A stretch of DNA of 32,000 nucleotides from Haloplanus pelagicus (GCF_023703795.1 NZ_CP098519.1:92229-124228), one strand, 5' to 3'; counted from the stretch's first letter, positions 13,846 through 32,000 are shown. Notes: a model not told the origin generated them from the letters alone. Translations and numbers: made by a program.

Positions 13846-13939
13846 ATCTGCTTGGTTGCGTCGAATCGATTATCGCTCTGTTCACCACACCGCACTCGCG
13901 GCACCGTGCTCTTCTGACCGGCCTCTAAGGATAACGTGC

Positions 13940-14716: not shown

Positions 14717-15177
14717 CAGTACGACGCACAGAGCTCCTTGGTCTCGCTCACCGACACCGACACATCCGTCACGGTATCCGGGAACTCATCGAGCATGCGT
14801 TGTTCGAGGAGGAGGCTCATCACCTCCGCCGTCGGCGGGTGTTCCAACACCACGAGCGCGTCGCCGTCACCAGACGCCTCGAACGCATCTACAAGCGGGT
14901 CGCCCTCCTCAACCAGGAACCGGTGATCCCACGCGTCGATGACGTCCGTGACGTCGCCTTTGTCGACGACCCAGCCCTCCTCGGTGAGTTCACCGGTCAC
15001 TTCGACAGTGATCTCGTAGTTGTGGCCGTGTGGCCGCGAACACTTCCCGTCGTGATGTAGGATTCGATGACCCGAACTGATCCGGATTGGATTGTCGCCT
15101 CCGATTTTGAGTGTCCGCTGGCCTGCCTCGACCAAGTTTTCAGCCGTAGAATCATCTTGTGATATGCTTTGAGACAT
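14716..15177 (-). CDS. queD: 6-carboxy-5,6,7,8-tetrahydropterin synthase
   Basis: SSGHRILHHDGKCSRPHGHNYEITVEV carries the His/Cys/HGH catalytic and zinc motif of QueD/PTPS. It is translationally coupled to queE. Confidence 0.92.
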   Translation of the reverse strand: MSQSISQDDSTAENLVEAGQRTLKIGGDNPIRISSGHRILHHDGKCSRPHGHNYEITVEVTGELTEEGWVVDKGDVTDVIDAWDHRFLVEEGDPLVDAFEASGDGDALVVLEHPPTAEVMSLLLEQRMLDEFPDTVTDVSVSVSETKELCASY

Positions 15178-15416: not shown

Positions 15417-15788
15417 ATGAGTAAACGAGAAGATCAACGAGAGAGTAGCTTGTCCTTGAGTGAAATAGACTCCACGCGAGCCCCTGATGAAAAGCAAATG
15501 GACGGCAAATCTGGAGAGATGCTGTATCAGCTCAAATTTCACAAAAGGCAGGGAGCAACCACCGAGGTGGGAAAAGTAACTGAAATCGGATCGTTAGAGG
15601 ATTCGCCTCCCGTTGATCTTCAGGCACTTCAGACAGATACCTATACTCACTATGCTATCTTCCGTTTGAAAGATCGATCAACGACACTGATTGTACAAGA
15701 CGAATCTGGAAATACGCACAAAGCGCTTTCACTTGGCAAAGATACTGTGAAAGTACCTTACAAAGTGAGTATTACCATCCAATCTTAG
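15417..15788 (+). CDS. Hypothetical protein
   Basis: A 123-aa ORF at the left end of the island with no recognisable motif. It is the only sizeable ORF in a 960-bp stretch. Confidence 0.4.
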   Translation: MSKREDQRESSLSLSEIDSTRAPDEKQMDGKSGEMLYQLKFHKRQGATTEVGKVTEIGSLEDSPPVDLQALQTDTYTHYAIFRLKDRSTTLIVQDESGNTHKALSLGKDTVKVPYKVSITIQS

Positions 15789-16137: not shown

Positions 16138-17205
16138 ATGCGACGATACCAATTCGATGACGTCGGCGAGATAGAATTCGTGGCGTCTGTCGCGCAAATC
16201 AATCGTTCTCAGCTTATCGATATCGTGGAGGACCTCGAGGAATACAACCTTGTAGAGTATGCTCTTGGTCGGATGATGTTTTGTCCGCTTACCTCCTCAG
16301 AGATTGCGGTTGATTATCTTGAATCGCTTTCATCGTCCTACGATCTCACATTCGCTTGTGATTCGGGAGGGTATGAGTCTCAAGTCAACGATGAATATAC
16401 GATGAAAGACATCTATACATTTGATCGAGAATACTACTTGTCGACAGACTGGCCTGACGAATTAGTTCTGCCCGACCAAGTGCCCGTAGAAGGAGACGAC
16501 GAGGCAACGATAGAGCAGAAGGTCCAGGACACAATCTCTCTCTCTCGAATGCTCTATAATGAACTACCAAGCGACAAGCAAGAGCGCGCAGTGCCAGTAA
16601 TCCAGGGGCATACTAAACAACAAATCGTTGAGTGTCTCGATGTTTATAGGAAGTTTGACAAAATAAATAAAATTGGGTTTGGGAGCTTTGGTACCGGAGG
16701 AGTAAATGGGGGTGTGAATTATTTGAATGAGGAGAATCTCGAACTACTACAATTCGTTGTGAAAGAGGCTCGGAAGTATGATCTAGACGTCCATGCATTC
16801 GGAATTGGCGGGCCAACTTCAATTCCTATCCTATATCAGTGTGGTGTTGATACGTTCGATTCGACTGGCTGGATACGATCTGGGGGTTATGGAAATATCT
16901 TTTTCCCATTTAAAAGTCGGCTTAATGTTACGCACCTTCGCAATCGGTCCGGTCCTACAGTCTTCCGAGAGGAATTGAGGGAAATAAAAGAGGAGACCGG
17001 ACATGAATGTCCGTACTGTCGGTCATTCGAATCCCTGCAAAACAGTCGTCAACATCGAATTTTACATAATCTTATTGTCATGCGTGAGATGACAGACATG
17101 ATCCTAGAATATTCGCTCGAAGAACTCATCGAGATGATGAATCCTAACTCAAAGTATACCGGCTACCTAAAGAAATTTACATCAACCGAGTCGGTCCGGA
17201 ACTGA
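16138..17205 (+). CDS. Queuine/archaeosine tRNA-ribosyltransferase (TGT) superfamily protein, short and PUA-less: DpdA-like candidate DNA-guanine transglycosylase
   Basis: CDSGGYES (D75 at 16360-16362) matches the TGT 'DSGGFQ' catalytic Asp. VPVIQG matches 'ivQGg', HAFGIGGP matches 'l.GvG.P', and GVDTFDS matches 'GvDmFDc' (second catalytic Asp). The zinc site GHECPYC...RILHNL is HxCxxC...HNL where canonical TGT has CxCxxC...HNL (17002-17067). At 355 aa it has no PUA or tRNA-binding extension. Confidence 0.82.
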   Translation: MRRYQFDDVGEIEFVASVAQINRSQLIDIVEDLEEYNLVEYALGRMMFCPLTSSEIAVDYLESLSSSYDLTFACDSGGYESQVNDEYTMKDIYTFDREYYLSTDWPDELVLPDQVPVEGDDEATIEQKVQDTISLSRMLYNELPSDKQERAVPVIQGHTKQQIVECLDVYRKFDKINKIGFGSFGTGGVNGGVNYLNEENLELLQFVVKEARKYDLDVHAFGIGGPTSIPILYQCGVDTFDSTGWIRSGGYGNIFFPFKSRLNVTHLRNRSGPTVFREELREIKEETGHECPYCRSFESLQNSRQHRILHNLIVMREMTDMILEYSLEELIEMMNPNSKYTGYLKKFTSTESVRN

Positions 17206-17252
17206 TTATCTAGAGGTAGATATTTGTTTGAGGTGTCTAATTGAATGACGAG

Positions 17253-18101
17253 ATGAGTCATTACACTTCAAAATTCCATATTAGTGACCCTGGCCCACAG
17301 GAGTTGTATGAATATTTGGATACTGTGGAGGCAACATCGCCATCATCGAATCCAGAACTTCTTGAATCGGCCAGAGACCTTGGCCACTCAATCGGGAGCA
17401 AGGAGAAATCTACAGAAGGTTCGGTGCTTGGCCGGCTCGGGATTGTAGATCCCACCGATCAATTTCAGTTTACTGAACTCGGTGACTCCCTGGTCGATAT
17501 CATGTATAGGGATCGGAACCTGTTTAATACGGTACTTCATTTTCTTTATTACTCTGCTTTTGAGAGATACCCAGACAGATATGTATTTATGTCGTATACA
17601 TACAGAGAGATGACCAACTATCTCTATGATAATTCCCCGTTTAGCACTTTTCGGGGAGAGCGTGGAACAATTGTTGGTGAAGTCACCGAATTAGCAGAAC
17701 AGAGTCCAGATGTCGACGTTTCCAAGACACGAAGCGGCGTGTCACTTAGTACAAAGAGTTTCAATAATTATCTGCAGTATCTTGCGGAACTATCCCCCGA
17801 GGTGCTAGTGGAGGATGACTCTGGGAGTCCCGGATTCGAGCGACGTGCGTTCTGCCCTCCGGAACTTATGATCTTGGCCGTGGATCATATCTATAAGCAA
17901 AACGAGACAGATTATGAGACGCTCCTCAGAGTGACAGATGATACCAAAGTTCGAATTCAACAGATGTGCCTCCTCTCTGATGATGGGTTCGATGAGGTAA
18001 CCGAGTACGCTGAACAGGCGTATCCATTCTTCTCAAAGAAACATGACTTTGGTCTCAACCTTCGATTAGACCGAGAAGTAACTCTTGATGACCTCCAATA
18101 G
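17253..18101 (+). CDS. Hypothetical protein (second gene of the island operon)
   Basis: The ORF-track start is TTG at 17241. The first ATG is at 17253 (MSHYTSKF...). No catalytic motif recognised. Its stop is followed within 1 nt by the next gene's ATG. Confidence 0.6.
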   Translation: MSHYTSKFHISDPGPQELYEYLDTVEATSPSSNPELLESARDLGHSIGSKEKSTEGSVLGRLGIVDPTDQFQFTELGDSLVDIMYRDRNLFNTVLHFLYYSAFERYPDRYVFMSYTYREMTNYLYDNSPFSTFRGERGTIVGEVTELAEQSPDVDVSKTRSGVSLSTKSFNNYLQYLAELSPEVLVEDDSGSPGFERRAFCPPELMILAVDHIYKQNETDYETLLRVTDDTKVRIQQMCLLSDDGFDEVTEYAEQAYPFFSKKHDFGLNLRLDREVTLDDLQ

Positions 18102-18102
18102 C

Positions 18103-18504
18103 ATGTCGTCACCTGTTGCAGAACTACTACAGAAATCTAATGAGGCAAAGCGGCGACTACAAGATGACCTCCTGACCGACGATCAGATCGCAGTACGCTC
18201 GAAACTTTTGGAATTTGCTGATCAGGACGGCGGTCATTACAACTTGTATGGAGCAAGAGGTGTTGGCAAGACCACGCTGGCTAAATATATGATGGTTCAT
18301 CAGAACGGGTGGGGATACGCTCCATGGCTACCCGTGAAAAATGCCTCAACACGAGTCCTCTTCGTCGATAATGTACCGGCAACCAGGACAGCGTCACGCA
18401 GAGCGCGTGAAATTATTGGATTTGACACTCCAGACACGGTGATTTCAGTTTCGCGCAAACCGGTTCCGGAAACAAAAGCGCGTGTTACACTCTCTGACAA
18501 CTGA
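18103..18504 (+). CDS. Small P-loop NTPase-like protein
   Basis: Walker A YGARGVGKTTLAKYM and a possible Walker B RVLFVDNV. The ORF-track start at 18085 overlaps the upstream gene by 17 nt. The in-frame ATG at 18103 lies 1 nt after the upstream TAG. Confidence 0.6.
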   Translation: MSSPVAELLQKSNEAKRRLQDDLLTDDQIAVRSKLLEFADQDGGHYNLYGARGVGKTTLAKYMMVHQNGWGYAPWLPVKNASTRVLFVDNVPATRTASRRAREIIGFDTPDTVISVSRKPVPETKARVTLSDN

Positions 18505-18591
18505 TACTTACAGGAGATATTCCCCTTCTCTACTCTCTGTCGATCATCCAATAATTTATTAACAGAGAAGTGCCAGAAGGGTATAGTTACT

Positions 18592-21500
18592 ATGGGACAG
18601 GCGAATGCGCAAAATATCGAGTCCTCTCTTCGAGAACTCAATGACACGCTGAACAAAGATGAGGGGATTGTCAATACATCAAGCGCTCACCGATTTTTAG
18701 ACCAGCCGAGCGATATCGAGACCGAATACATTGAGTACGCTCGGACTCACCTGATCCAGCCAGACATTCAACGGTTTATCGATTCGTTGACTGGAGCCCT
18801 CGAAGATGAAGATCTGAATAAATCTGTTCCTGGATACATTGTGGGCCCCTACGGGTTTGGGAAGACCAGTACAACGGGAAAAGTTTGGTACCTTCTTGAC
18901 CAGGAAGACAACTACATTACTACCCCTCCGATCTATTTCGATGAACTACAGTCAATTGTCGACGCCGTGTACGGATGGATGCGGTTCCGCTTGAGGGACC
19001 GAGAAGAGCATCTAGAAACCCTCGAACAGCGGTACCAGGCCAAAGTGACCAGTAACGTCGAAGATATTGTTGACCAAACTGGATTCGATGACAAAGATCA
19101 AACCCGGGAAGAGTTCGAGCGACTAATCGAGTCGGGATCGATTGATATCGAATTCTCGGTCCAACACGTTCTGGATTTCCTTTCTGAATGTAATCAGATC
19201 GCAAAAGACGCTGGGTACAAAGGCCTCGTCGTTATTGCCGACGAACTTCAGCAGTTCATATCCAGTCACTCGTCTGACAAAGAAGCATACTCTAAGCTAC
19301 GTGATATTGCAAAAAGCACAGCCCTCGGCCTGAACGAAGGCGACGGCTTGGGTCTTCTGTTCACCATGGACGATGGTCTCCACGGAGACCTGGACGTGAA
19401 TGCAGACGATGTTCTTGCGCGGTTAGCAGAACAGAACGTTCAACTCAACTTAGCGAATGTTTACAACCGAGATTTCCCGACTAAGCTGTGGGAAAGTCTG
19501 GCTGAAACTTACGGTTTCAAGGACAGACGCTACGAAGTAATTACCGAGGATACGCTAGACGCAATTGGTCAGATCTGTGAACGTGGACCTCCTCTTTCAA
19601 ACGGCCCTCGTTCAGTTGTGGACATTCTCACGATCGCTATCGAGCACTACCTCTCTGAGTCGGAGGCGTTTGATGCTCTTGACCTCGCCAATGCGTACTA
19701 TAATGGCGTTGTCCGATTCAAAGGAGACCACATCAAAACCGCAATCACAGAGGCGATTAATTCTGATCAAATAAGTACCCCCGATCGTGAGAATTTCATC
19801 AAGCTGTGTGGGGTATTCCCTCGAGGAGTCTCAGATGACCTACTGAAGCAGTATGGGGTTCACGAGGCGAAAGAACAGGTCAAAGGAGAACTTCACGGAC
19901 AGCTCATCATCACACACGAGGAAGGGCGCACGCTCAAACGTCTTGAGCGGGAAGGAGAGGATCGTGGGATCAAAGACGAACTGTTCACACAGTTCTATCG
20001 GGATTATGACACCACAGACATCTACGATTCGAACGCTTCTGAGACGTTCCGAGAATTTGTTGTTTCGGAAGAACTCTTCCCCGCTGTTCGAGGAAAGAGT
20101 CTGAGCAGCTGGGTTACCGAACACGCCTTTGAACCCGAAACTGGAGGAGTGTACGCGGCAGTCTTTCGTGGGTCATTCAACGGGCAAGAGTACCCTGAGC
20201 GGCTTATTGAAATCCGAATGGGCACGGATGCTACATCAGTTAAATCGCCCGATGAAGGCACAGATACTGACCTCACGATTGGCTTTGCCGTTAACATGGA
20301 GAAGCAGACTGAAGTCACCCCTCACATCGAACGGGTATCTACTGACGAGGTTCTTCTACATCTAGACTTAGCTGATTCTTTCGACAGCCTCCCGAGCAAT
20401 ATCGTTATGTTGGAAGATTACATGAGTCCGGAAGATGTCAGCCCCCATCTGCTGCTCTCCTTACATCACTTCATGCGTAATTGGGAGGAGAACCAAACAG
20501 TCAATCCCAACCAGGAGACACAGTTGGAATATATCCGTGACCAGTTAGTCACGCAAAGCATTCAGAAGGCGTTTGGCCCTCCCCTGAATGGGGACGACTT
20601 CCTCGATGAATCAGGGAGTAGTCGCCGGACCGTTGATCCGTCAAAGGTCGTCGAGAAAATCTTCAACCGTGTAATCGAAGAGGTCTATCCTGATTATAAA
20701 ACTCTCTTCATCTCGGACAATTACCAGACCTTCTTAGATGACTATGAATCTCTCCTAGTAGGAAACGATCCGAATATCCGGATCTCACAAAAGCGGGGTA
20801 ATACCCCAATTGAAGGGACAAAAAGCGATATTTCCAACGCGATCGGGGTATCTAGTAACTCGACAGCAAAAACACGTCTTGATAAACAATTTGAAGATCT
20901 CGTTGACACTGAAGTCTGGCAGGGCAAGGATGCCAGGGTTCGATTGACCCTTCATCCCCTTGAGGAACTTCTTAAAGACCATATCGAGGAGCAAGAGAAG
21001 GAAACTGTCGCCGTCAGTGAGTTATATGATGTAGCCGGGGAGAAAGGGTACCGGCAGGAAGAAGTTGACTGGGCAGTCCGCCTCCTTGTTGGTCGAGATT
21101 TCATCAAGCATGATCAAAACGATGAAACGGTCGAACTGAGCGACATTGCTATCGACATCGACCAAGTCAAATCTCGGCTGGAATCACTCCGAAACACGGC
21201 TGCGGAGCTCAACGAAATCTCGAACGAGTGGAGTGAGTATGACTCGATCACTAATGAGTTGAATCGCCTTGAGGAGGAACTCAGCGGAACGACGAATGAC
21301 GACATTGAGATACTCGATGATCTTAACGCCGAGCTAGAAGAGGTAGATTCGCAGATCTCGACGCAGATCAAGGCCACAAGTGCGACCCTTCGTGAACGTG
21401 CCCGAGGAACAATAGACAGACTCAAAGGACTTTCATCCAGCAACAAGCCTCGCGATCTGAAAAAGACTGTCGAGAAGTCTAATGTTCCGTTCGGCCTCCA

Positions 21501-22683
21501 TATCAAAGACATCGAGACTGAACTATCATCCAACTTTACAAAAGCAACTACAGAGGCCGACTCTGCCCGCTCAGATCTTGATACAGATCTCGAGATTGCA
21601 TCTGGCACGGCAGCTCTGAGTGAGATTAATACTCTACAGGACTCAATTGAGGAGGCGAAAGAAATCGCTGAGCAGGTTGATGAAGAATTAGAGGATATCA
21701 AAGAGGACGCGGCTGACTACGCGGATTGGTGTCGACTTGCAAATGACATGGACGCTGCTCGTTCGGATATTGTTCAGTATGCAAATACTCATCCTGACAA
21801 CAGTGCCGCGATGTCAATCAGGGATGAGCTTACCGCTCTGATGAGTGAGATTCAGACTGAGTTCCAGAAGGGCAGTGACCACGATGACTTCCCTCAGGCA
21901 CTGCGGAATGCCGAAATGTATCGGCAGCAGTTCGAAGACCTCAAAGACCAATTCGAGGAGATAACTCAGGGGGACGAAGAGAACTTCAATTACCGGAAGA
22001 ATGTGCTTGAGAACACGCTGAAGATTGGTACTTCCGGCCACCCAAGTATCAGACAAAACTTGAGTCCTAACAATGCTGAGAAGTCACGTAATGACCTCAA
22101 GCATGAGTTCCGCCGCCAGCTGGTTGAGAACAGCGATGGAATCGAAGATGTAAAGTCCGATATCAAATCGATTGAGACCAGCATTGAGTATGCTGAGTTG
22201 TTGAATCAGGTTCCGGATGAAGCTGACCCGACTCCGGCTGATATCCGCGATCAGATAGTCGATTTCGAATCTACTATTGAAGATATCCATCAGGCTGTCA
22301 GTCAAATGGATATCACTTCGGCTATCCGACTTCCGACTGAGGGTGGCCGTTCGAACTCGTTCCCCAACACCGATGAGAAATTGAGTCTCTCGATTGACAA
22401 CCGCGAGGTGAACGTCGGCGAACGAATCGACGAAATCCGAGATTCAATTGAGGCACTCCATCAAGACGTTCGTGAGTGGCGACAGGTTACTGAGACTCCC
22501 CCAGAAGATCTTGAATATATTATGGATGAACTGGACTATCGGGATCAGTCTGACTTGGAGAGCGTCCTAATTTCAGTCTCTGAAAAGAAAGGTGACACCG
22601 ACGTTGCAGAGTTCTTTGCCGATCTGGAAACCTTATTCGAGGGGAACCACATCACGGTCTCGATCAAAAGCGAACATAGGTAA
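18592..22683 (+). CDS. Large P-loop ATPase, BrxC/PglY-like (DUF499-type), with a long coiled-coil C-terminal half
   Basis: Walker A VGPYGFGKTS (18841-18867) and Walker B LVVIADELQQF (DE at 19240-19245). The size (1363 aa), N-terminal ATPase position and gene order immediately before a PglZ gene match BREX BrxC/PglY. Residues from about 845 to 1290 (about 21127-22460) are E/D/L/I-rich and heptad-like (…LRNTAAELNEISNEWSEYDSITNELNRLEEELS…). The family assignment is inference. The P-loop call is read directly from the sequence. Confidence 0.8.
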   Translation: MGQANAQNIESSLRELNDTLNKDEGIVNTSSAHRFLDQPSDIETEYIEYARTHLIQPDIQRFIDSLTGALEDEDLNKSVPGYIVGPYGFGKTSTTGKVWYLLDQEDNYITTPPIYFDELQSIVDAVYGWMRFRLRDREEHLETLEQRYQAKVTSNVEDIVDQTGFDDKDQTREEFERLIESGSIDIEFSVQHVLDFLSECNQIAKDAGYKGLVVIADELQQFISSHSSDKEAYSKLRDIAKSTALGLNEGDGLGLLFTMDDGLHGDLDVNADDVLARLAEQNVQLNLANVYNRDFPTKLWESLAETYGFKDRRYEVITEDTLDAIGQICERGPPLSNGPRSVVDILTIAIEHYLSESEAFDALDLANAYYNGVVRFKGDHIKTAITEAINSDQISTPDRENFIKLCGVFPRGVSDDLLKQYGVHEAKEQVKGELHGQLIITHEEGRTLKRLEREGEDRGIKDELFTQFYRDYDTTDIYDSNASETFREFVVSEELFPAVRGKSLSSWVTEHAFEPETGGVYAAVFRGSFNGQEYPERLIEIRMGTDATSVKSPDEGTDTDLTIGFAVNMEKQTEVTPHIERVSTDEVLLHLDLADSFDSLPSNIVMLEDYMSPEDVSPHLLLSLHHFMRNWEENQTVNPNQETQLEYIRDQLVTQSIQKAFGPPLNGDDFLDESGSSRRTVDPSKVVEKIFNRVIEEVYPDYKTLFISDNYQTFLDDYESLLVGNDPNIRISQKRGNTPIEGTKSDISNAIGVSSNSTAKTRLDKQFEDLVDTEVWQGKDARVRLTLHPLEELLKDHIEEQEKETVAVSELYDVAGEKGYRQEEVDWAVRLLVGRDFIKHDQNDETVELSDIAIDIDQVKSRLESLRNTAAELNEISNEWSEYDSITNELNRLEEELSGTTNDDIEILDDLNAELEEVDSQISTQIKATSATLRERARGTIDRLKGLSSSNKPRDLKKTVEKSNVPFGLHIKDIETELSSNFTKATTEADSARSDLDTDLEIASGTAALSEINTLQDSIEEAKEIAEQVDEELEDIKEDAADYADWCRLANDMDAARSDIVQYANTHPDNSAAMSIRDELTALMSEIQTEFQKGSDHDDFPQALRNAEMYRQQFEDLKDQFEEITQGDEENFNYRKNVLENTLKIGTSGHPSIRQNLSPNNAEKSRNDLKHEFRRQLVENSDGIEDVKSDIKSIETSIEYAELLNQVPDEADPTPADIRDQIVDFESTIEDIHQAVSQMDITSAIRLPTEGGRSNSFPNTDEKLSLSIDNREVNVGERIDEIRDSIEALHQDVREWRQVTETPPEDLEYIMDELDYRDQSDLESVLISVSEKKGDTDVAEFFADLETLFEGNHITVSIKSEHR

Positions 22684-22688
22684 CTCCC

Positions 22689-23864
22689 GTGTCTACCCGC
22701 ACTATTGAGTCACTGTCTGCCTTGGCTGAAGCGACACGTGACGGACCAGTTGTCGCAAATATCGGAGGGCTCGAGTCTCGAGTACTACAAAACAGGCATG
22801 GTATCGATACCCTTGAATCGCTTGAAGAGTTTTACCGCCTCTATGAGTCTCCGACTAATTTGTTTGAAACCGATGTGATCATTCGGGATCAGGGATCTAA
22901 GCCGTCCTTTGATAGGTCACTTACGCTCTACAACCCACCTTCGATAGAACAGGTCGAATACACTGGCACCGTGTACGATAGGTCGCTTAATGGACTCATA
23001 TCAGAAGGGTCGATTTCTTGGGACGATGTGGAGAGCACAACCACTTGTCAATCAGAGGTCGGCGATCTCATCACGGAGGCGGCATCTGATGTTGATGTTA
23101 TTGCGCTGGTTATTGTTGATGGCCTCTCCTATCAGGATTGGACAGACTCAGGCTATGAGGCAGAGCCAATCTATGTTGATTGCCCAACACGTACAGATTG
23201 TGGCTACCCAAATGTCGTCCGTGGGGCATCCAACGGGAAGCATCTCCAATATCGGCTTTTCAACGAGGGATATAAAACCCGGAAGGCGTTCACCTACTGG
23301 GAACGTAAGGATAACGACCTTTCTGACGAATTGCACGATGGTTTCTCCAAGAACGACGTAATCGGAAACATCCAGGACTTTGCTGATTCCATCTCATATT
23401 TACAGACCCACGATTGGTATCGACCGAAGACCTATCTCCAGTTCACTCTTACCGGTCCTGAACGTGTAGCGCACCGAATGAAGGAGGATCCTGTGATCCA
23501 GAGTGAGGTAGACGCAGTTCATCAAAAGTTGTCTGACCTCCGTGAAACAATCAGCAAAGAAACGGACTCATTCCGTATTTTCGCTGTTGCCGACCATGGT
23601 ATTCTCTGGCGGATGGATACTGACTTTGAGGCACTTGATGAAAAGTGGAAGCAGGGAATTCGTCGGGACTATGAAGACCCTCCAGCCAGCGCATCTGTTC
23701 CTGAGTCCGTTGGTGAAACATCCTTCTGGGCTGGTCAGCAATATCTCCGGCTTTATCACCCACACATATTCAATAACCTACGAAGTAACGAACCAGGAGT
23801 ACACGGTGGCTTTTCGTACCAAGAGTCCATTGTTCCGTTAATTGAATACGAGGATCTGAAATGA
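22689..23864 (+). CDS. pglZ: PglZ-domain (alkaline-phosphatase superfamily) protein, short form
   Basis: GTG start 5 nt after the upstream stop. VIALVIVDGLSYQDW (D144 at about 23118), FAVADHGILW (DH at about 23592) and the C-terminal GVHGGFSYQESIVPLI (about 23802) match the three metal-ligand and terminal motifs I associate with PglZ ('iDg(l/m)r', 'sDHG', 'HGG.s..E..vP'). At 391 aa it is shorter than typical BREX PglZ. Confidence 0.68.
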   Translation: MSTRTIESLSALAEATRDGPVVANIGGLESRVLQNRHGIDTLESLEEFYRLYESPTNLFETDVIIRDQGSKPSFDRSLTLYNPPSIEQVEYTGTVYDRSLNGLISEGSISWDDVESTTTCQSEVGDLITEAASDVDVIALVIVDGLSYQDWTDSGYEAEPIYVDCPTRTDCGYPNVVRGASNGKHLQYRLFNEGYKTRKAFTYWERKDNDLSDELHDGFSKNDVIGNIQDFADSISYLQTHDWYRPKTYLQFTLTGPERVAHRMKEDPVIQSEVDAVHQKLSDLRETISKETDSFRIFAVADHGILWRMDTDFEALDEKWKQGIRRDYEDPPASASVPESVGETSFWAGQQYLRLYHPHIFNNLRSNEPGVHGGFSYQESIVPLIEYEDLK

Positions 23865-25030
23865 CACAAGAAATATTCATTGGCGAGGAACGTGATAGCG
23901 GCGAGGAAACGCTTATTGACACTTCGAAGGCCCGTGCTCTCTTCGTTTGTGGGAAGCGAGGGACCGGCAAGAGCTATTCGTTGGGAAACGTCATCGAGGA
24001 GGTCAACCGAGAGATGCCCGACACAGTTCCCCTTGTTGTTGACCCGATGGGGATTTACTGGACGATGGCCGAACCAAATGACGAACAGCAAGATCTCCTC
24101 TGGGATTGGGGAATGCAGCCGACTGGGTTTGACACTACACTCCTCGTTCCGGGCGATCCAACAGAACGTTACGGACCTGAAGTCTACGATGAGATGATGC
24201 GCCGCGGTATCGAAATCGAGAGCCTGCGTCTCAATCCTTCTGACATTTCTCCCGATGGGTGGTGTGAACTCTTCGATCTCAATATAAACAAACCGATGGG
24301 TATTGCGTTGTACCGAGCTGTCCGTTCGCTAAACGAATCTCAAGACTTCTTTGACCTGGACGAGCTCATCGAAGAAGTTGAATACGACGAAAAAGCAAAC
24401 GAGCGGACTGTGGACGCTCTTGTCAATCGTCTGGAGATGGCACACGAATGGGGCATCTTTAGTGACTCATATACAGACATCTGGAACAATCTCGATCCTT
24501 CTCGGGTTAATATTCTCGACGTGAGTGTTCTCGACCCAGGGAAGTACGGTCTTCGTAATTTGGTCGTCTACGTACTGACAAAAAAAATATTTGATGAGCG
24601 ATCGAAAGCGCGCCGTCGAGAGGAACTACAGTTGTCCTCTGATATTCCGAAGGTCTGGCTATTCATCGATGAAGCACACAATTTTGCACCGTCCGGGTCG
24701 TCCTCGCTTGCGAAGGATATCTTGATTCGATGGATCAAGGAGGGACGTCAGCCGGGGCTGTCGCTCGGCATAGCAACTCAACAGCCAAGTGCTGTATCCT
24801 CAGATGTCGTGTCCCAAATGGACTTGATTTTCTGTCACAAAATCACTACTCGCACTGATATTCAGTCGCTGAACGAACTAAGTCAGGAGTACATGGGGAG
24901 TCAGCTGAAGACCTATATCAAGAAAATCGATAAAGTTGGTGAAGCAGTCTGCGTCGATGACGAAAGAGAAGTAGTAACGCAGGTTCAAATGCGACCACGT
25001 ATGAGTCAGCATGGTGGCAGCGGGGCATGA
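23861..25030 (+). CDS. HerA/FtsK-type (DUF87-like) ATPase
   Basis: Walker A FVCGKRGTGKSYS (23951-23974), Walker B VWLFIDEAHNFAP (DE at 24668-24673) and GIATQQPSAV, which fits the 'TQRP' motif of HerA/FtsK/VirB4 ATPases. ATGA overlap with the pglZ-like stop at 23861-23864. Confidence 0.82.
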   Translation: MTQEIFIGEERDSGEETLIDTSKARALFVCGKRGTGKSYSLGNVIEEVNREMPDTVPLVVDPMGIYWTMAEPNDEQQDLLWDWGMQPTGFDTTLLVPGDPTERYGPEVYDEMMRRGIEIESLRLNPSDISPDGWCELFDLNINKPMGIALYRAVRSLNESQDFFDLDELIEEVEYDEKANERTVDALVNRLEMAHEWGIFSDSYTDIWNNLDPSRVNILDVSVLDPGKYGLRNLVVYVLTKKIFDERSKARRREELQLSSDIPKVWLFIDEAHNFAPSGSSSLAKDILIRWIKEGRQPGLSLGIATQQPSAVSSDVVSQMDLIFCHKITTRTDIQSLNELSQEYMGSQLKTYIKKIDKVGEAVCVDDEREVVTQVQMRPRMSQHGGSGA

Positions 25031-25563
25031 CAACAAATATTCAACGATCAAACAATTCTACGGCAGTGCCAACTACAGTCGACCTCCAGATCTCTGACTT
25101 CCTTGTCAAATCAATTAGTAAAAGTGAGAGATCGGTATCAGAATTGAATTCTTTTTTTAATTCTAATCAGATCAAATCTGAACTCCATTGGTTCACTCAT
25201 CGGGACACCCTGGAACGTGCAGCGTCACGGCCTGACCGACGGTTGTTTTATTTTGCACCCCACGATGCGATCATCGGCGGACTCATGATTTGGTGTGAAT
25301 CGAGAGTGCTTGACCAAACGGAAGCACAAATACGCCTTGTTGCTGTTTCACCAGATTATCGAGGCTATGGAATCGGACAGTACTTAGTGAAAAAGGCTAT
25401 TGAATTTGCAAAAGAGCATAATAAGGAATCAATAATCGCGGACGTTGCAGCCGAAGCTCCCGCAGTACAATTCTGGGAGGCTATCGGGTTTCACAAAGTT
25501 GATTCGTACTTTACAAATGGTGGTCGAGAAATGTATCAGATGGAACGGCACCTGAGTAAGTGA
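25027..25563 (+). CDS. GNAT-family N-acyltransferase
   Basis: IRLVAVSPDYRGYGIGQYLVKKAIEFAKE is the acetyl-CoA-binding motif A (R-G-x-G-x-G/A). The downstream FWEAIGF matches motif B. ATGA overlap with the HerA-like stop at 25027-25030. Confidence 0.8.
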   Translation: MTTNIQRSNNSTAVPTTVDLQISDFLVKSISKSERSVSELNSFFNSNQIKSELHWFTHRDTLERAASRPDRRLFYFAPHDAIIGGLMIWCESRVLDQTEAQIRLVAVSPDYRGYGIGQYLVKKAIEFAKEHNKESIIADVAAEAPAVQFWEAIGFHKVDSYFTNGGREMYQMERHLSK

Positions 25564-25597
25564 GAGCGTTTATTAGAGGGGACCCATAGATTGTACT

Positions 25598-25996
25598 ATG
25601 TCACAGTCCTCTTCCAGTTCTGAACGAAGTTCCTTACTGGACTCTTTTGAAGCCCCGGAGACGTCAGTCGCTCAGGTGTATACGTTTGAAACAGACGAGG
25701 TAACAGCACTCTGTCCGTTCGACTTCGGAGGGCCTGATTACTATGAGTTCACTCTAAAATACGTTCCTTCCGAAGACTGTGTCGAGAGCAAGAGCCTGAA
25801 AAAGTTCCTTGAATCGTATCGTGATGTTGAGATCACTGCCGAAGGACTTGGTGCCGAGATGTATGAAGAAATCACCGAGACAATATCTCCTAAAAAAATG
25901 TACATCCGGCTCGAACAGGCACGGCGAGGTGGGATTGAAGAAACTGTTGAGTTCGGTGATATAGAATTGAAGTCCGCAAGAGAGCAGGTACAATAA
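25598..25996 (+). CDS. queF: QueF-family protein (preQ0 nitrile reductase or QueF-like amidinotransferase; the subtype cannot be decided by eye)
   Basis: TALCPF carries the catalytic Cys (C39, about 25712). GGPDYY carries the preQ0-binding Asp. VESKSLKKFLESYR fits the QueF motif E(S/L)K(S/A)hK(L/Y)(Y/F/W) at 25784-25810. The unimodular size is 132 aa. Confidence 0.83.
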   Translation: MSQSSSSSERSSLLDSFEAPETSVAQVYTFETDEVTALCPFDFGGPDYYEFTLKYVPSEDCVESKSLKKFLESYRDVEITAEGLGAEMYEEITETISPKKMYIRLEQARRGGIEETVEFGDIELKSAREQVQ

Positions 25997-26568: not shown

Positions 26569-29154
26569 GTGCCATTTCCCCGCGCTAAATCATCCCGTCA
26601 ACTCTACGACGAAGTCAAATCGTATGACCGAGTGATTACCCCAGACGGACCGCTCGCGAGTGCCCTCAACCGCCAGCTTGATCGGTCACACCTCGGTCCG
26701 TTTGCTATACCCCCACGTCGCCTTGCGGTCGGTCGCCGGCAAGAATCTGAGGACCGCCTCGCGTTTCTCGGCATGATCGCAAATGAAGATATTTCGTGGA
26801 AACGGTGCGCCTACGCAGTCGGGAATATCCTCCAGTGTTGGGAACACCAAGGATCCCACGAGGCTATCTTCGAGTACGACGCATACATCGACGAGGCTAC
26901 CGAACGAGCTGTTGAGCGAATCGGTGACCTTGAGACGGCCTCGATGAAGCTCACAACCGACACTATCGATTCAGATCTCGATGTGGTCGTTGTCGAGCCG
27001 GAGATGCTTACAAAACTCGAACGAGCGTATCTGCCTACTGAGTACGATACGGTCAGTCTCTTTGCCGACACAGAGTTTGAGCTGCCCCCGTTTCGGATCC
27101 ATGATTCACCGACAGCGATCATCGAAACGGTGGTGAATGCGGTCACCGAAACAAACGCCGAAAACGTCGGGATCGTCCTCGATCAGGAAAGTGAGTACTC
27201 GCCGCTTATTGAGTCCGCACTCGAGGCAGCCGACATCCCGTTTTTCGGCGGACCGGGCTTTACTGATCGCAGCGAACACCGCTTGTTTCTTCATTTCCTC
27301 CGGACTGCCCACCGTGGAACTGACACTCGGATCAGCGAGATTCGGTCGCTGCTGACAGCTTTTGACTGTGATGTGGCCGACCGTGAGGCAGACAAGCGGC
27401 TCCACGAACTCGATGATGAACAATTGTCGTGGCTGATCGACTTCTGTCACGAGATCCAGGAGTACACGTTTTCGGACGCGCTCTCGGTGTTCGAACACCG
27501 CACCGACGACGTGCTTGATGCCTTTCGAACGGAGCTTGATGAGCTTGGTATCGCCGACGAGACTGTCACGGAAGCGCGCCTCGACGAACTGTCGTTCTAT
27601 CTACAGACGTATGAGGTCCCTGTTGACCGGGATAACGAAGGCGTCCTGCTCGCCGACGCAAAGTCAGCATCATACGTCGGTCGTGAGGTTGTCTTCTATC
27701 TTGGCCTCGATGACCGGTGGACGCATTCGGCACCGCGTCGTCCGTGGGTTGATCAGGATGCTCAGTTCACGCGGAATCTCAAGAGCTTCCAGTTGCTGTT
27801 ACAGAGTGGGAGTCAACAACACTATCTCGTTCAGGATGCGACCGGCGGATCACCCGTCACCCCATGTCTGTACTTCGAAGAGCTCCTCGAGCAAGAGTAT
27901 GATCGCTTCTCAGAGCTGCCGTCTACCACCCATCAACTCCGATCTGAATCACACGATGGGGCTGTATTCAACACAGAGGCAGTTGACGTGTCTTCTGAAC
28001 CAGTAGAGACGATTAGTAAGTCGAGTCTCAACACCTACGTGAACTCACCCCGAGACTACTACTTCAGCCGGATCGTCGACGGCCCAGAGAAAGACTATCT
28101 CACTGAGGGTACCCTACTCCATGACTTTGCGGAGTTCTACGTTACCCATCCAGCGGTCGTCGACGACGCGGCGCTGACAGACGTCGTTGATCTCATGCTT
28201 GATGAAGTCCGTCCCCTGATCCGCTCTGTTGATGAACAGACTCGCCGGACGGAGTACCGTCTAAGCCTCGAAACAATCGTCTCGTACCTTGATGACAACC
28301 CTCCGACAGACGGAGCGTTCCTTACGCCCTCCAGCAGTACTGAGAACGCTATTGCCGACTACTTCGGGTATGATATCGAGTCGTCGGTAACTGAACGCCG
28401 GTTTGTTGATGAGGATCGTGGTATCAACGGAATGATCGACCTTGTCCAGTCGCAAACCGAGCTGCTGGATTACAAAAGCGGGAGCGAGAACGACGCCAAT
28501 TCGATCGTCCAAGACGCCGCGATCGACGAACTCTCCAACGAACCTGACTTTCAGGCGTTGCTATATCTCACTTACTGGAGCTCACAAACGCCCGCTCAAC
28601 AGCTTTCGTTCACGTTCTTCTACGTTACTGAACTCGTCGACGACGCCATCGCCGGTGACGTCGATATCGACGACGTGCTGACGACGGTGACGTATTACCC
28701 CGGATCTCTCACAGATCACGTCCGAACAGAGGAGTTCTTCGAGTACCTTTGTGAGGAGGGGGCTAACGACTGCCAGAAGACCCTCTCGAAGATCGATTAT
28801 CAGACGTACGCTGCTCTCTTCGATGCCGCACCACTCGTCGAGACAACTGACAGCGACGAACTCATCGAGTCAGAGTTTGGCCGGACGATGATCGAACGAC
28901 TTGAGGCGGAGATTAGTGACTTCGTCTATGTAACGACGGGAAGCAAACAGGTCATGCGGGAAATCGCCCGGAAACAGAAGGGTGCGTTTTTTGAACCTGA
29001 CCTAGATGCGTTTGAGTCGTTTGTTGAAGAGCGGCTAACAGAGCTCAACCGACGTCGCACCGGCGACGAACCGTTTCCCATCGAGGGACTTGCCGGCGAG
29101 CCGAATTACCGGCGGGTAGACAATCGGGATTTGCTCTTGGAGGGTGAACAATGA
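26569..29154 (+). CDS. AddB-like subunit: helicase-like N-terminal region without a P-loop, plus a C-terminal RecB-family PD-(D/E)XK nuclease
   Basis: GTG start. Nuclease motifs are INGMIDLVQSQTELLDYKSG (28423-28482; D...D/ExK) and FQALLYLTYW (QxxxY, about 28549-28578). No GKT/GKS was seen anywhere in the 861 aa. Its stop overlaps the next gene's ATG (ATGA at 29151-29154). Confidence 0.72.
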   Translation: MPFPRAKSSRQLYDEVKSYDRVITPDGPLASALNRQLDRSHLGPFAIPPRRLAVGRRQESEDRLAFLGMIANEDISWKRCAYAVGNILQCWEHQGSHEAIFEYDAYIDEATERAVERIGDLETASMKLTTDTIDSDLDVVVVEPEMLTKLERAYLPTEYDTVSLFADTEFELPPFRIHDSPTAIIETVVNAVTETNAENVGIVLDQESEYSPLIESALEAADIPFFGGPGFTDRSEHRLFLHFLRTAHRGTDTRISEIRSLLTAFDCDVADREADKRLHELDDEQLSWLIDFCHEIQEYTFSDALSVFEHRTDDVLDAFRTELDELGIADETVTEARLDELSFYLQTYEVPVDRDNEGVLLADAKSASYVGREVVFYLGLDDRWTHSAPRRPWVDQDAQFTRNLKSFQLLLQSGSQQHYLVQDATGGSPVTPCLYFEELLEQEYDRFSELPSTTHQLRSESHDGAVFNTEAVDVSSEPVETISKSSLNTYVNSPRDYYFSRIVDGPEKDYLTEGTLLHDFAEFYVTHPAVVDDAALTDVVDLMLDEVRPLIRSVDEQTRRTEYRLSLETIVSYLDDNPPTDGAFLTPSSSTENAIADYFGYDIESSVTERRFVDEDRGINGMIDLVQSQTELLDYKSGSENDANSIVQDAAIDELSNEPDFQALLYLTYWSSQTPAQQLSFTFFYVTELVDDAIAGDVDIDDVLTTVTYYPGSLTDHVRTEEFFEYLCEEGANDCQKTLSKIDYQTYAALFDAAPLVETTDSDELIESEFGRTMIERLEAEISDFVYVTTGSKQVMREIARKQKGAFFEPDLDAFESFVEERLTELNRRRTGDEPFPIEGLAGEPNYRRVDNRDLLLEGEQ

Positions 29155-32000
29155 GCAACCTCGAACCGAATCCGGCACAGCGCGAACTCATCAACGCAAT
29201 CGAGGGGCTGTACCTCGTCGATGCGGGCGCTGGCACTGGGAAGACCTTCACCGTCACCCGCCGATACGCGCATATCGTCGAACAGGATGGGGTAGCTCCG
29301 TCCGACGTCCTGTTGGTCACGTTCACGAACAACGCTGCCGAGGAGATGCGCGACCGGATTGTGCAGAACAGCGAGTACGGTATGCGGGAGCTCTCGAACG
29401 CCCCAATTCAGACGTTCCACTCGTTAGCACACGATATCCTTGACGAACACGGCCATGATGCTCCGACATATCTCGGCGTGGAGGAGACGATCACCGGATC
29501 GACGCGGATCATCGAAGACGACATCATCGAAGAGGCGCTGTTTCGAGAGTTCATCGGCCAGTTCATCGACTCGCACCCTGAGTACAACGAGTTCTTCACA
29601 GCGATTTCGGAGACGACAGAGCTGCTCGATCTCATCAAAGAGCTGTCTGCGAAGGGTGTCTTTCCCACCGCAAACGGCTGGTACCGCGACGGTGAGTCAC
29701 ACCTCGACGGTGACGTTGCGGCGTTCGAGACGTTGTTCGCCGATATAAACGAACCTCGAAACGGTGGCAGCAAGCAGTCTAAGCTCCGCAAGAAGCTCAA
29801 CGACTACGGGGATGAGAAAACCTACCTCCCAGACGCCCCTGAAAAGTGGGAGCTTCGGGGGGACGGCAAGCAGATCCCAGCGGATGTCGCAGAACGCGTC
29901 TTTGAGGACGATCGAACGGCACTCAAGCAGTTCGTCCATGACGTGTATCACGCCTATCTTGAGTTTGCGCTTCGACGGAATTACCTGAACTTCGGGTTCC
30001 TTCAGCTGTTCGCGTTCGTCCTGCTGTGTGAAGACCACGACCTCCGAGAACGGCTAGGATACGAGTACGTGATGGTCGATGAGTTTCAGGACTCGAGTGA
30101 AATCCAGTTCAAGCTGATGCTTCTTCTAGCCGGCACAGATAACATCTGTGTGGTCGGTGACTGGAAACAGAGTATCTACAGCTTCCAATACGCCGATGTC
30201 GACAACATCCGTGAGTTCGATGATCGACTCCACCGATTTGTCGATGAACTCAACCGAGACGCAGAGCGAATCGCGTTCTCGCCGACGAAGGCTGCCGGCA
30301 AACGGTTGACGCGAAACTATCGGTCGACACAGTCTATCTTGGAGTTCTCCACACATGCGCTGACGGCGCGCGCGACGAAAAGCGAGTCGCTAGATACTGA
30401 AGCAATTTCTGAGACAGTCACACCGTTGGAGGCTGATACGGACCGTGATGATAGTCGTATCGAGGCGCTCACGAGCGAAGACGAACACGAGGCGATCCTC
30501 GCGAAAATCGACGACATCGTCGATAATGACGACTACGCCGTTGAGGGTGACGACGGCGAGTACCACGCGCCAAAATACGGCGATATCGCCGTATTGACCC
30601 GAACTCGCGATTTCGGTCGGGACCTACTCGACACGGCGAACGCGTACGACCTCCCGATGGCGTATGAAGGTGGCATTGAGGTGTTCCGAACGGACGCCGC
30701 AAAGCTACTGTTAGCGTGGCTTCGGATCCTCGAACGTGACGCCGATCGCGGCTGGGCGCTCGTCTTAGAGGAGGCTGGGTACACGATCGACGAGGTGAAG
30801 GCGATCATCGATCGCGACGCGTACCCTGACGCGATGATTACCTTCCGCGAAGACCTCCAAGAGATGGAGACATTCGGCGGTGTCGCCCGTCGCGTGTTCG
30901 ATCGATACGACCGGAGCGGCCCAACTGCGGACGTCGTTCTCGACACTATTCAGTCAGTCTATGGGACGACAACGTTCACCCGTGGAGAATTGATTCAGTT
31001 CATCGAAGCAGCGATCGAAGATGGCAGTACCCACGAGGTAGACGCTGGTGCGGGGACAAATGCGGTGACTGTTCAGACAATCCATGCGACGAAAGGACTC
31101 GAATACCCGATCGTCATCCTCGCGAATATGAACACGAACAAGTTCCCATCGACGGGCGGTAGTGGGAGCGATATTGCGTACACCGATCCGATCGGACTCC
31201 GACAGCGAAAGGTGTACTCTGAAGAGGCTCACGATGTTCCACACGTCTACGACAACTGGCAGACAGACGTTCTCAACAAGTGTCTCCCTCCGAACTATGA
31301 TGAGGAACGCCGACTCCTCTACGTCGCTATTACGCGCGCTGAGAGCCACGTCATTTTGACCGGCGGTGAGGATCCGAATGTGTTCCTCGATGACCTTCCA
31401 GTTGACATCGAACCAGTTGATCCAGATCTGTCGACCTTCGACCCGATAGAGGACGAGCATTCACCGTTTACGGTTGATATTCCGGATCCAGATGGGCCGG
31501 CACGCTACTCTCCTCATACGTTCATTGACGACGCGGTATTCGAAGGGAACACCGGTGGTCGTGGAATGGAGTTTGGGTCGGAAGTCCACGAATTCGCGGA
31601 ACAGTATGTTCTCGATAAGGCTGTCGACACCGAGGGCAACCCTGACAAAGAGAATGTGAAGGAATTCTTGGATTCACTTGATGGCGAGAGGAAAGCTGAG
31701 ATCGACGCGTTTCTTCCGCTGACCGTCGATGACAAGGAGGTGACGATCGGTGGGATCATCGATTTACTCCATATTACGTCTGACCAGATCGATATCATCG
31801 ACTACAAAACTGACCTCACGACCCACGCCGAAGACGAGTACGAGAAACAGCTCAGTATTTACTACCACGTCGTTGCCGACCAATATCCAGATCGAGAAGT
31901 CACTGCCTCAATCTTCTACACCAATGATGGTAACCAGCGCAGGATCACCCATCTCAGCAAATCCGAACTCAAAGACCTGATCCGAACTCACCGTACCTGA
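29151..32000 (+). CDS. UvrD/PcrA/AddA-type superfamily 1 helicase with a C-terminal RecB-family nuclease domain
   Basis: Q-motif NPAQRELI, motif I DAGAGTGKTF (29226-29246), Ia LLVTFTNNAAEEM, II VMVDEFQDSS, III VVGDWKQSIYSFQYA, IV LTRNYRS, V/VI VQTIHATKGLEYPIV and LLYVAITRAE. The C-terminal nuclease is GGIIDLLHI...IDIIDYKTD plus QLSIYYH (about 31750-31870). The stop TGA is at 31998-32000. Confidence 0.92.
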   Translation: MSNLEPNPAQRELINAIEGLYLVDAGAGTGKTFTVTRRYAHIVEQDGVAPSDVLLVTFTNNAAEEMRDRIVQNSEYGMRELSNAPIQTFHSLAHDILDEHGHDAPTYLGVEETITGSTRIIEDDIIEEALFREFIGQFIDSHPEYNEFFTAISETTELLDLIKELSAKGVFPTANGWYRDGESHLDGDVAAFETLFADINEPRNGGSKQSKLRKKLNDYGDEKTYLPDAPEKWELRGDGKQIPADVAERVFEDDRTALKQFVHDVYHAYLEFALRRNYLNFGFLQLFAFVLLCEDHDLRERLGYEYVMVDEFQDSSEIQFKLMLLLAGTDNICVVGDWKQSIYSFQYADVDNIREFDDRLHRFVDELNRDAERIAFSPTKAAGKRLTRNYRSTQSILEFSTHALTARATKSESLDTEAISETVTPLEADTDRDDSRIEALTSEDEHEAILAKIDDIVDNDDYAVEGDDGEYHAPKYGDIAVLTRTRDFGRDLLDTANAYDLPMAYEGGIEVFRTDAAKLLLAWLRILERDADRGWALVLEEAGYTIDEVKAIIDRDAYPDAMITFREDLQEMETFGGVARRVFDRYDRSGPTADVVLDTIQSVYGTTTFTRGELIQFIEAAIEDGSTHEVDAGAGTNAVTVQTIHATKGLEYPIVILANMNTNKFPSTGGSGSDIAYTDPIGLRQRKVYSEEAHDVPHVYDNWQTDVLNKCLPPNYDEERRLLYVAITRAESHVILTGGEDPNVFLDDLPVDIEPVDPDLSTFDPIEDEHSPFTVDIPDPDGPARYSPHTFIDDAVFEGNTGGRGMEFGSEVHEFAEQYVLDKAVDTEGNPDKENVKEFLDSLDGERKAEIDAFLPLTVDDKEVTIGGIIDLLHITSDQIDIIDYKTDLTTHAEDEYEKQLSIYYHVVADQYPDREVTASIFYTNDGNQRRITHLSKSELKDLIRTHRT

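Follow-up and report, generated by a model that had tools for sequence, protein, structure and literature searches.

QueF and a GNAT acyltransferase as candidate DNA-marking partners of the transglycosylase in a haloarchaeal BREX-Related Capture operon

A 32,000-nucleotide stretch of DNA from Haloplanus pelagicus (GCF_023703795.1, NZ_CP098519.1:92229-124228; the window, within which all coordinates are counted) carries a nine-gene island that ends, on its 3′ side, in the genes for a GNAT-family acyl-coenzyme A (acyl-CoA) N-acyltransferase and a QueF-family protein. The island holds a BREX-Related Capture (BRC) operon, and GNAT, QueF and the TGT-superfamily transglycosylase of the operon are proposed here, on balance, to make up its DNA-marking module, which would tailor a base derived from preQ1 (7-aminomethyl-7-deazaguanine). 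That the module works at the level of preQ1 appears likely; that GNAT acylates the base is put forward tentatively. The comparison behind these statements spans approximately 100 related loci, 80 of which were found with a HerA profile and then annotated.

BRC was described in silico only, with PglZ, DUF6079/BrxC, STAND, DUF4007, HerA, GNAT and TGT as its components (Nucleic Acids Research, 2026; PMC12839542). The operon of the window has all seven, matching the published ones in kind and in order, and this cassette recurs in seven further named haloarchaeal genomes. The five core genes lie in one operon at 17241-25030, collinear with the loci listed in the BRC paper, and the optional modification module of TGT and GNAT is present at 16138-17205 and 25027-25563; the operon is a BRC system. 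The alignments of the BRC paper include haloarchaeal orthologues from Halogeometricum, Halorubrum SD683, Halovivax and Haloprofundus, whose GNAT orthologues were recovered independently here. QueF is mentioned neither in the text of that paper nor in six supplementary files, and the modification was considered to be “perhaps restricted to dPreQ0 alone” (PMC12839542), dPreQ0 being the deoxynucleoside of preQ0 (7-cyano-7-deazaguanine). In contrast, QueF is found here to be a constant eighth gene of haloarchaeal loci; the tracking of TGT by GNAT is also quantified, and fusions of GNAT to DUF6610/DpdA4 are reported.

QueF is encoded in all of the complete haloarchaeal-type loci of the HerA-profile set (12/12), as well as in the window and in loci L003/4, L005, L100, and L101. 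None of the 12 non-halophile loci that contain TGT has it; these loci are taken to be bacterial because a gene fusing sigma-70 and RNA polymerase alpha C-terminal domain (alpha-CTD) sequences lies directly upstream of TGT. Queuosine is not made by archaea, and in Euryarchaeota the route from preQ0 to archaeosine does not involve QueF (PMC6884629). Since the haloarchaeal loci keep a QueF that their hosts do not need for archaeosine, the simplest reading of these gene contents is that the BRC system needs the product of QueF and must carry the enzyme where the host is without one. The preliminary description of this DNA had considered QueF unexpected for tRNA metabolism and probably a DNA-tailoring enzyme; a role outside tRNA metabolism is borne out by its position in a defence island with a DNA-type transglycosylase, by its retention in or beside every haloarchaeal locus examined, and by its NADPH motif, kept at seven of eight positions and missing from the amidine-forming QueF-L (PMC5372742, PMC10516641).

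The haloarchaeal operons occur in two main variants. In variant A (TGT…HerA-GNAT-QueF; the window, Halogeometricum, Halorubrum SD683, and L018-L021), QueF lies at the 3′ end of the operon and carries a divergent “TAE” sequence. In variant B (QueF-TGT…HerA-GNAT; Halorientalis, Halovivax, L010, L012, and L022-L025), QueF overlaps the start of TGT and has both the canonical “(Y/W)HE” and a fully canonical ELK(S/A)LK(L/Y)Y motif. Identity between the two QueF clades, which occupy these two different operon positions, is ~29% across the A1 alignment and 37-40% when only the aligned core is counted. Elsewhere, QueF is convergent with GNAT (Haloprofundus) or lies ~8 kb downstream of GNAT behind a second BREX-like gene set (Halovenus). 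The preliminary description, which presented GNAT and QueF as a gene pair, overstated their association: the two are adjacent in only one operon variant, and the conserved feature is the membership of both genes in a TGT-containing operon.

Individual loci add to this picture. In L019 (11211-13468), whose HerA is 97% identical to that of the window, the QueF gene that follows GNAT is reduced to a degraded 53-amino-acid fragment, interrupted by a transposase-like insertion sequence, and a second, intact “TAE” QueF lies 1.7 kb downstream. Halovivax cerinus (L003/L004 8844-10895 and 12496-14211) has both QueF types side by side, the canonical QueF coupled to TGT and a divergent “TGE” QueF with a homologue of the small first open reading frame (ORF) of the window island; a GmrSD type IV restriction gene and ApeA are nearby, and because of these the locus is regarded as a defence island. 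In Halovenus halobia (L100 2015-9853), the interval between GNAT and QueF contains genes for proteins of 268, 191, 1325, and 813 amino acids, the last with PglZ/Phosphodiest matches; this second BREX-like set of L100 was not recognized by the BRC profiles of this analysis.

The QueF ORF of the window (25598-25996, plus strand; 132 amino acids), whose product is 100% identical to a Haloplanus pelagicus protein, has the Cys, Asp and Glu residues and the ESKSLKKF sequence ascribed to it in the preliminary description. It matches Pfam QueF (PF14489) with 62.0 bits (cutoff 27.3), and its best solved relative by HMMER is Bacillus subtilis QueF (YkvM; 4F8B, E=9.4e-8), ahead of the QueF-L structure 5JYX (E=1.5e-4). 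Judged by the residues used to define the family (Cys, Asp, Glu, and the QueF motif; PMC5372742), Cys39 aligns with Cys55 of 4F8B, the catalytic Cys that forms the thioimide; the Asp of GGPD aligns with the general acid/base Asp of GQPD (B. subtilis Asp62); and the Glu of “TAE” aligns with the substrate-anchoring Glu of “FHE” (B. subtilis Glu97). Each of the three is invariant in 120/120 homologues. ESKSLKKF agrees with the NADPH motif of QueF, E(S/L)K(S/A)hK(L/Y)(Y/F/W), at seven of eight positions, the exception being position 7, where Leu/Tyr gives way to Lys (across the clade, to K, Q, L, E, or R); E-S-K-S-L-K is invariant or nearly so among the 120 homologues. The window protein and YkvM thus share the T-fold family, the three residues, and E-S-K-S-L-K; they differ in the clade-wide replacement of Phe95-His96 by Thr-Ala, in the sequence around the catalytic Cys (CPFDFGGPD vs. 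CPKTGQPD, with a one-residue insertion after Cys in the “TAE” clade), and in the shorter C-terminus of the window protein.

The replacement before Glu had been noticed by eye, and the alignment agrees: HMMER places “itaE” opposite “dfHE” of 4F8B. In a wider comparison with QueF and QueF-L proteins, E-S-K-S-L-K of the NADPH motif and the Glu are kept and the His of the His/Glu dyad is replaced by Ala, a change present in 117/120 homologues and hence a feature of the clade, not of one protein; His is kept in all other QueFs aligned, namely QueF-L, HVTV-1 QueF, Dp-1 QueF, and the variant-B QueFs. Because it is strongly conserved, the “TAE” clade is predicted to be functional, but its substrate pocket is remodelled, which might for instance allow action on DNA-bound preQ0. 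From these residues, the QueF of the window is probably an NADPH-dependent preQ0 reductase that supplies preQ1. Neither QueF nor GNAT is a chance ORF, as each has more than 100 conserved homologues.

The association of GNAT with the transglycosylase was evaluated in the HerA-seeded loci that are complete on both sides, of which 18 have TGT and GNAT, one has TGT alone, none has GNAT alone, and four have neither (Fisher p=5.6e-4, uncorrected for phylogeny, the counts not being phylogenetically independent). When loci found by other routes are added, the first class rises from 18 to 23 and the others are unchanged. The position of GNAT beside HerA is not fixed: L036 and L037 have it immediately before TGT and overlapping it, and L075 and L077 encode GNAT and TGT as one fusion protein. 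The GNAT family profile was also run against 1.84 billion representatives, and among the best 150 matches there are at least 10 fusions to BRC-type TGT, in both orders, four fusions to DUF6610/DpdA4, and one to DUF4007. DUF6610 was identified as DpdA4, a transglycosylase found in archaeal viruses alongside genes for preQ1 synthesis (Cui et al.; PMC10516641). On plasmid pOSC7112.01 of Oscillatoria nigro-viridis PCC 7112 (L103 11551-17707), a GNAT-TGT fusion annotated only as GNAT has DUF4007 and a BrxC-like gene beside it, with no HerA or PglZ nearby. This is a minimal layout in a cultured cyanobacterium; the layout of L014 is similarly reduced.

The GNAT gene (25027-25563, plus strand; 178 amino acids) is, as had been proposed, translationally coupled to HerA: the HerA ORF ends ...GGGGCATGA, with the ATG of GNAT inside it and a 4-nucleotide ATGA overlap, and 34 nucleotides separate GNAT from QueF. 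The protein matches Pfam Acetyltransf_1 with 54.1 bits (cutoff 20.7), as well as Acetyltransf_10 and Acetyltransf_7. The CoA pyrophosphate-binding motif (Q/R)xxGxG/A is represented by RGYGIG at residues 112-117, with R112, G115, and G117 nearly invariant. An AlphaFold2 model built on 71 homologues has the GNAT fold (predicted local distance difference test, pLDDT, 88), and the nearest folds found by Foldseek are PaiA (1TIQ, template modelling score 0.70), SpeG, Ard1, and RimI, of which PaiA and SpeG acetylate primary amines of polyamines and so lend support to an amine acceptor. PADLOC gave no meaningful match to GNAT, only PDC-M11A (E=0.0036, 14 bits). GNAT is also present on Bathyarchaeia contigs that are too short to show TGT or QueF.

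The transglycosylase (16138-17205, plus strand; 355 amino acids) is of the BRC type and is presumed to exchange guanine in DNA. It matches Pfam TGT with 41 bits, reaches only 23.5 on NCBIfam DpdA (cutoff 200), and matches PADLOC DpdA with E=1.5e-5. The motifs DSGG, LPD, QG, GFGSFGT, FDS, and HxCxxC..HNL are invariant in 13 BRC TGTs, haloarchaeal and bacterial. The Asp of FDS aligns with the nucleophile region of the archaeal enzyme ArcTGT (1IQ8), as does the zinc motif with its counterpart, so that the catalytic Asp residues and the zinc site of the TGT superfamily are both present. No DpdB or DpdC was matched by PADLOC among the nine proteins of the operon.

Viruses link the GNAT family to preQ1. 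PHROG 23962, a family of unknown function, matches the GNAT of the window with 113 bits, and among 50,697 phage records full-length GNAT homologues are confined to five members of the Druskaviridae (HVTV-1, HVTV-2, HCTV-1, HCTV-5, and HCTV-16), all of which carry QueF and DpdA4. Gp90 of HVTV-1 is 38% identical to the GNAT of the window (127 bits on the family hidden Markov model), and its gene lies between those for DNA polymerase and an N6-adenine methyltransferase; through HVTV-1, the GNAT family is tied to DNA chemistry at the preQ1 level. Phage QueFs that have the NADPH motif reduce preQ0 to preQ1, the DpdA2 of VH7D, the one testable DpdA from a QueF-encoding phage, inserts preQ1, and N-formyl and N-methyl derivatives of dPreQ1 (the deoxynucleoside of preQ1) exist in nature (PMC10516641). 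A virus of Thermocrinis from Great Boiling Spring (L098 3953-5130) carries a BRC-type GNAT (111 bits) that overlaps a BRC-type TGT (222 bits); use of the module of GNAT and TGT by viruses thus extends beyond the haloarchaea. The GNAT-like gene that comes two genes after QueF and DpdA in Dinoroseobacter phage vB_DshS-R5C was not counted in the family, being half-size and scoring 47 bits; in this phage (L099 4520-7306), QueF, DpdA, and two half-size GNAT-like ORFs lie in a row. In Mycobacterium phage Rinkes (532-1652), a match to the DUF6610/DpdA4 region is found in gene 1, whose annotation is ParB-like nuclease, and gene 2 beside it is QueF-like.

In the established pathway, preQ0 is made by QueC, QueD, and QueE. 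The host versions of these enzymes would provide preQ0 to the island, whose QueF would reduce it to preQ1 with NADPH, as its conserved residues and the occurrence of QueF in every haloarchaeal operon suggest. TGT, from its family and its context, would exchange guanine in chromosomal DNA for the deazaguanine. GNAT, the obligate partner of TGT, would then use acyl-CoA to tailor the base, most likely at the nitrogen of the 7-aminomethyl group of preQ1 and either before or after insertion; this is the weakest step, which we only infer, and acylation may affect only some sites. By analogy with BREX, BrxC, PglZ, HerA, DUF4007, and STAND may treat unmarked DNA as foreign. A more complete version of this scheme, which is offered with reserve, is that GNAT acylates (most simply, acetylates) preQ1 to give N-acetyl-dPreQ1 (nucleoside [M+H]+ ~338.1), that this base would be a BREX-related self mark in haloarchaea and, by way of the host QueF, in bacteria, and that the GNAT of the HVTV-1 group would imitate the mark at sites checked by the host. 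It may be speculated that tRNA enzymes would not use an acylated base, which would keep the DNA mark separate from tRNA metabolism.

Several observations weigh against this scheme. The QueF of the window scores 81.9 on NCBIfam TIGR03139 (preQ1 synthase), 5 bits short of the cutoff of 86.9, and with both Phe and His missing before Glu, the activity of the “TAE” clade is not guaranteed to be canonical. Bacterial systems whose operons are without QueF, and hence their GNAT, might use preQ0, a base that lacks the aminomethyl group. In one complete locus (L027), TGT is present but GNAT is not, and no GNAT-QueF fusion was found among the best 150 representatives of the GNAT family. The fold neighbours of GNAT are generic and do not identify its acceptor, the protein N-terminal acetyltransferases scoring about equally. 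The relevant measured DNA is that of a virus, HVTV-1, not of a BRC host, and abundant free dPreQ1 in a virus with a GNAT homologue argues against complete acylation, which would there be partial at most.

These last points favor the most probable of the alternatives, in which QueF and TGT make plain dPreQ1 as the mark and GNAT, leaving the base alone, acetylates a protein such as TGT itself or a further BRC subunit, or otherwise controls or stimulates the exchange. In HVTV-1, dPreQ1 accounts for ~30% of G, with traces of dADG (the amido derivative) and dG+ (deoxyarchaeosine), as measured in 2019 with fixed multiple reaction monitoring (MRM) transitions for dADG, dQ (deoxyqueuosine), dPreQ0, dPreQ1, and dG+ only (PMC6884629). 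Ard1 and RimI, among the structural neighbours of GNAT, are protein N-terminal acetyltransferases, and fusion to an enzyme is also expected of a regulatory or auto-modifying domain. However, since its transitions were fixed to five nucleosides, the HVTV-1 assay was blind to an acetyl or other acyl derivative; formyl and methyl tailoring of the same nitrogen is a precedent; and fusion of GNAT to two transglycosylase lineages, BRC-type TGT (in both orders) and DUF6610, fits a shared small substrate better. This reading, in which GNAT does not act on the base, is rated as rather unlikely, though above the other alternatives.

A dPreQ0 mark, as surmised in the BRC paper, would leave the haloarchaeal QueF a side role (salvage, detoxification, or control of the preQ0 pool) or an altered catalysis. 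In its favor, the DpdAs of bacterial Dpd systems and those first characterized from phages insert preQ0, although a preQ1-inserting phage DpdA2 has since been shown (PMC10516641). Bacterial BRC operons do without QueF, and the QueF of the window is without the conserved His and just under the TIGR03139 cutoff. This reading is nevertheless improbable: no haloarchaeal locus is without QueF, the role being filled by two clades, of which one is fully canonical and has its gene translationally coupled to that of TGT; a disrupted copy is replaced by a second one in L019; and BRC TGTs have the same pocket motifs whether haloarchaeal or bacterial. We know of no other use of preQ1 in haloarchaea.

Still less probable is that the “TAE” QueF is a QueF-L-like amidinotransferase, converting preQ0, free or in DNA, to the archaeosine base (dG+). 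The host is archaeal, QueF-L is the archaeal branch of the family and a detectable relative (5JYX), and the change from FHE to TAE points to a remodelled substrate pocket. QueF-L, an enzyme of polymer-bound preQ0, is marked by the loss of NADPH-dependent reduction activity (PMC10516641) and, in the alignment to 5JYX, is without the NADPH motif of QueF. The window protein differs in that this motif is retained and E-S-K-S-L-K is invariant in its clade, its better match is B. subtilis QueF, and the His absent from the “TAE” clade is preserved in QueF-L; moreover, in variant-B operons this role falls to a canonical QueF. Retention of the NADPH motif was the ground on which the QueF-L reading was rejected.

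Toxins of the GNAT family are found in other defence systems and in toxin-antitoxin systems. A GNAT that serves by itself as an effector or toxin (e.g., by acetylation) and is unconnected with the deazaguanine base, the fallback offered in the preliminary description, would suit the coupling of the window GNAT to HerA instead of TGT, but it is the most improbable of the readings and was rejected as largely refuted, because GNAT never occurs without TGT in the complete loci and is missing whenever TGT is, relocates beside TGT, and fuses with both TGT and DUF6610/DpdA4, and because no meaningful PADLOC match connects it with such effectors.

The proposed preQ1-based module resembles two further known types of system. 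Like the bacterial Dpd systems (DpdA/DpdB/DpdC with DpdD-K; dPreQ0 and dADG), it combines a TGT-superfamily enzyme, an island of restriction-modification type, and the preQ0 pathway; unlike them, it is without DpdB and DpdC, its TGT is far below the DpdA cutoff, its partners are BREX-like instead of DpdD-K, and its operon has QueF and GNAT, neither of which is found in Dpd. The viral dPreQ1 pathways, those of HVTV-1 (QueF and DpdA4) and of phiSM and its relatives (QueF and DpdA with the tailoring enzymes DpdM/DpdN), likewise join QueF to a DNA transglycosylase, but serve as anti-restriction devices, whereas the module described here is cellular and coupled to a defence machine. Methylation and formylation are established ways of tailoring the aminomethyl nitrogen of preQ1 (PMC10516641); the tailoring enzyme in BRC would instead be an acyl-CoA transferase.

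BRC itself is known; relative to the literature searched, the new elements are the QueF component, the preQ1-derived mark that it implies, the GNAT-DpdA4 fusions, and the GNAT of HVTV-type viruses. No report of acyl-dPreQ1, or of a GNAT working with a DpdA, was found in that literature, the BRC paper aside. If GNAT does acylate the base, both the resulting natural DNA nucleobase and the enzyme activity would be new, and the GNAT of HVTV-type viruses would be explained; N-acetyl-dPreQ1 would be the ninth natural 7-deazaguanine base in DNA. BREX-type systems are widespread, and to our knowledge the means by which they discriminate self from foreign DNA are established for few, through adenine methylation or phosphorothioation. 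A preQ1-derived mark would be the third self-mark chemistry of BREX-type systems and the first evidence that archaeal cells, and not only viruses, place 7-deazaguanines in their own DNA. Cultured carriers include Haloplanus pelagicus, Halovivax cerinus, Halorubrum sp. SD683, HVTV-1, and Oscillatoria PCC 7112.

The island extends from ~15.4 to 26.0 kb and is low in GC (0.44-0.49, compared with 0.52-0.61 in the flanks). Its genes, all on the plus strand, encode in order a 123-amino-acid ORF, TGT, a 286-amino-acid protein, a small AAA/STAND NTPase, a 1363-amino-acid BrxC-like ATPase, a short PglZ, HerA, GNAT, and QueF. The 286-amino-acid protein (17241-18101) is a DUF4007/BrxA-like DNA-binding component with no Pfam match, assigned from a position kept in all loci and from the component named in the BRC paper. 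The small NTPase (18085-18504; 139 amino acids), the BrxB counterpart, has weak AAA_25 and AAA_16 matches and a conserved position (PMC12839542). The large BrxC/DUF6079-like ATPase (18592-22683), kept in all loci, matches Pfam BrxC_BrxD with 27.3 bits. The short PglZ-like protein (22689-23864; 391 amino acids) matches PglZ of PADLOC with E=3.9e-6 and has homologues with Pfam PglZ matches. The HerA/FtsK-type translocase (23861-25030; 389 amino acids) matches Pfam DUF87 with 47 bits and HerA of PADLOC, and its identity across most of the 80 metagenomic loci is 45-98%, with one outlying group at 37%. The PADLOC profile “mad8,” from the MADS defence system, also matches HerA over its full length (65.6 bits), which hints at a relationship between BRC and MADS.

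The sigma-70/alpha-CTD fusion by which the bacterial loci were recognized is a large ORF with sigma-70 regions 2 and 4 and the alpha-CTD, and it ends at the start of TGT (or of GNAT); it is found at L033 37-2613, L035 3-2402, L036 2-2050, and L057 1-2340 and is, as far as seen, not among the seven published BRC components.

The first ORF of the island (15417-15788; 123 amino acids) has homologues beside QueF at L002 10473-10811, L003 10530-10895 (of L003/4), L005 10644-11018, L021 11426-11770, L025 513-878, and L101 9076-9450. Members of this family have 121-125 amino acids and an invariant GIFR.xDRSTT motif, and in both variants of the haloarchaeal BRC islands they recur as immediate neighbours of QueF; the window differs in that the small ORF and QueF are at opposite ends of the operon. 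Pfam, PHROG, and PDB searches gave no match to the small ORF, and an AlphaFold2 model from the single sequence (pLDDT 54) was too poor for a fold search; its membership in the system is uncertain.

Neither a preQ1 riboswitch nor a tRNA was detected when the window was scanned with Rfam and for tRNA genes. On the 5′ side, the island abuts genes for preQ0 synthesis, QueC, QueE, and QueD (13156-15177, minus strand; Pfam QueC, Radical_SAM, and PTPS), the GC content of which (0.57-0.61) is that of the host and which presumably supply the substrate. The Halorubrum SD683 island is also flanked by QueD/QueE/FolE/QueC (L005 11653-14188), so that two genera have preQ0 genes directly at the edge of the island; between the two, the orientation of the cassette relative to these flanking genes is inverted. 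On the other side of the window island are genes for an AddB-like PD-(D/E)XK protein (26569-29154; 861 amino acids) and an AddA/UvrD-like helicase-nuclease (29151-32000), both on the plus strand. An AddB-like end lies beside the Halorubrum SD683 island as well (L005 1-165), and a full AddB/AddA pair is present in Haloprofundus (L101 1824-7294); these neighbours could mark a conserved insertion site or be an associated nuclease.

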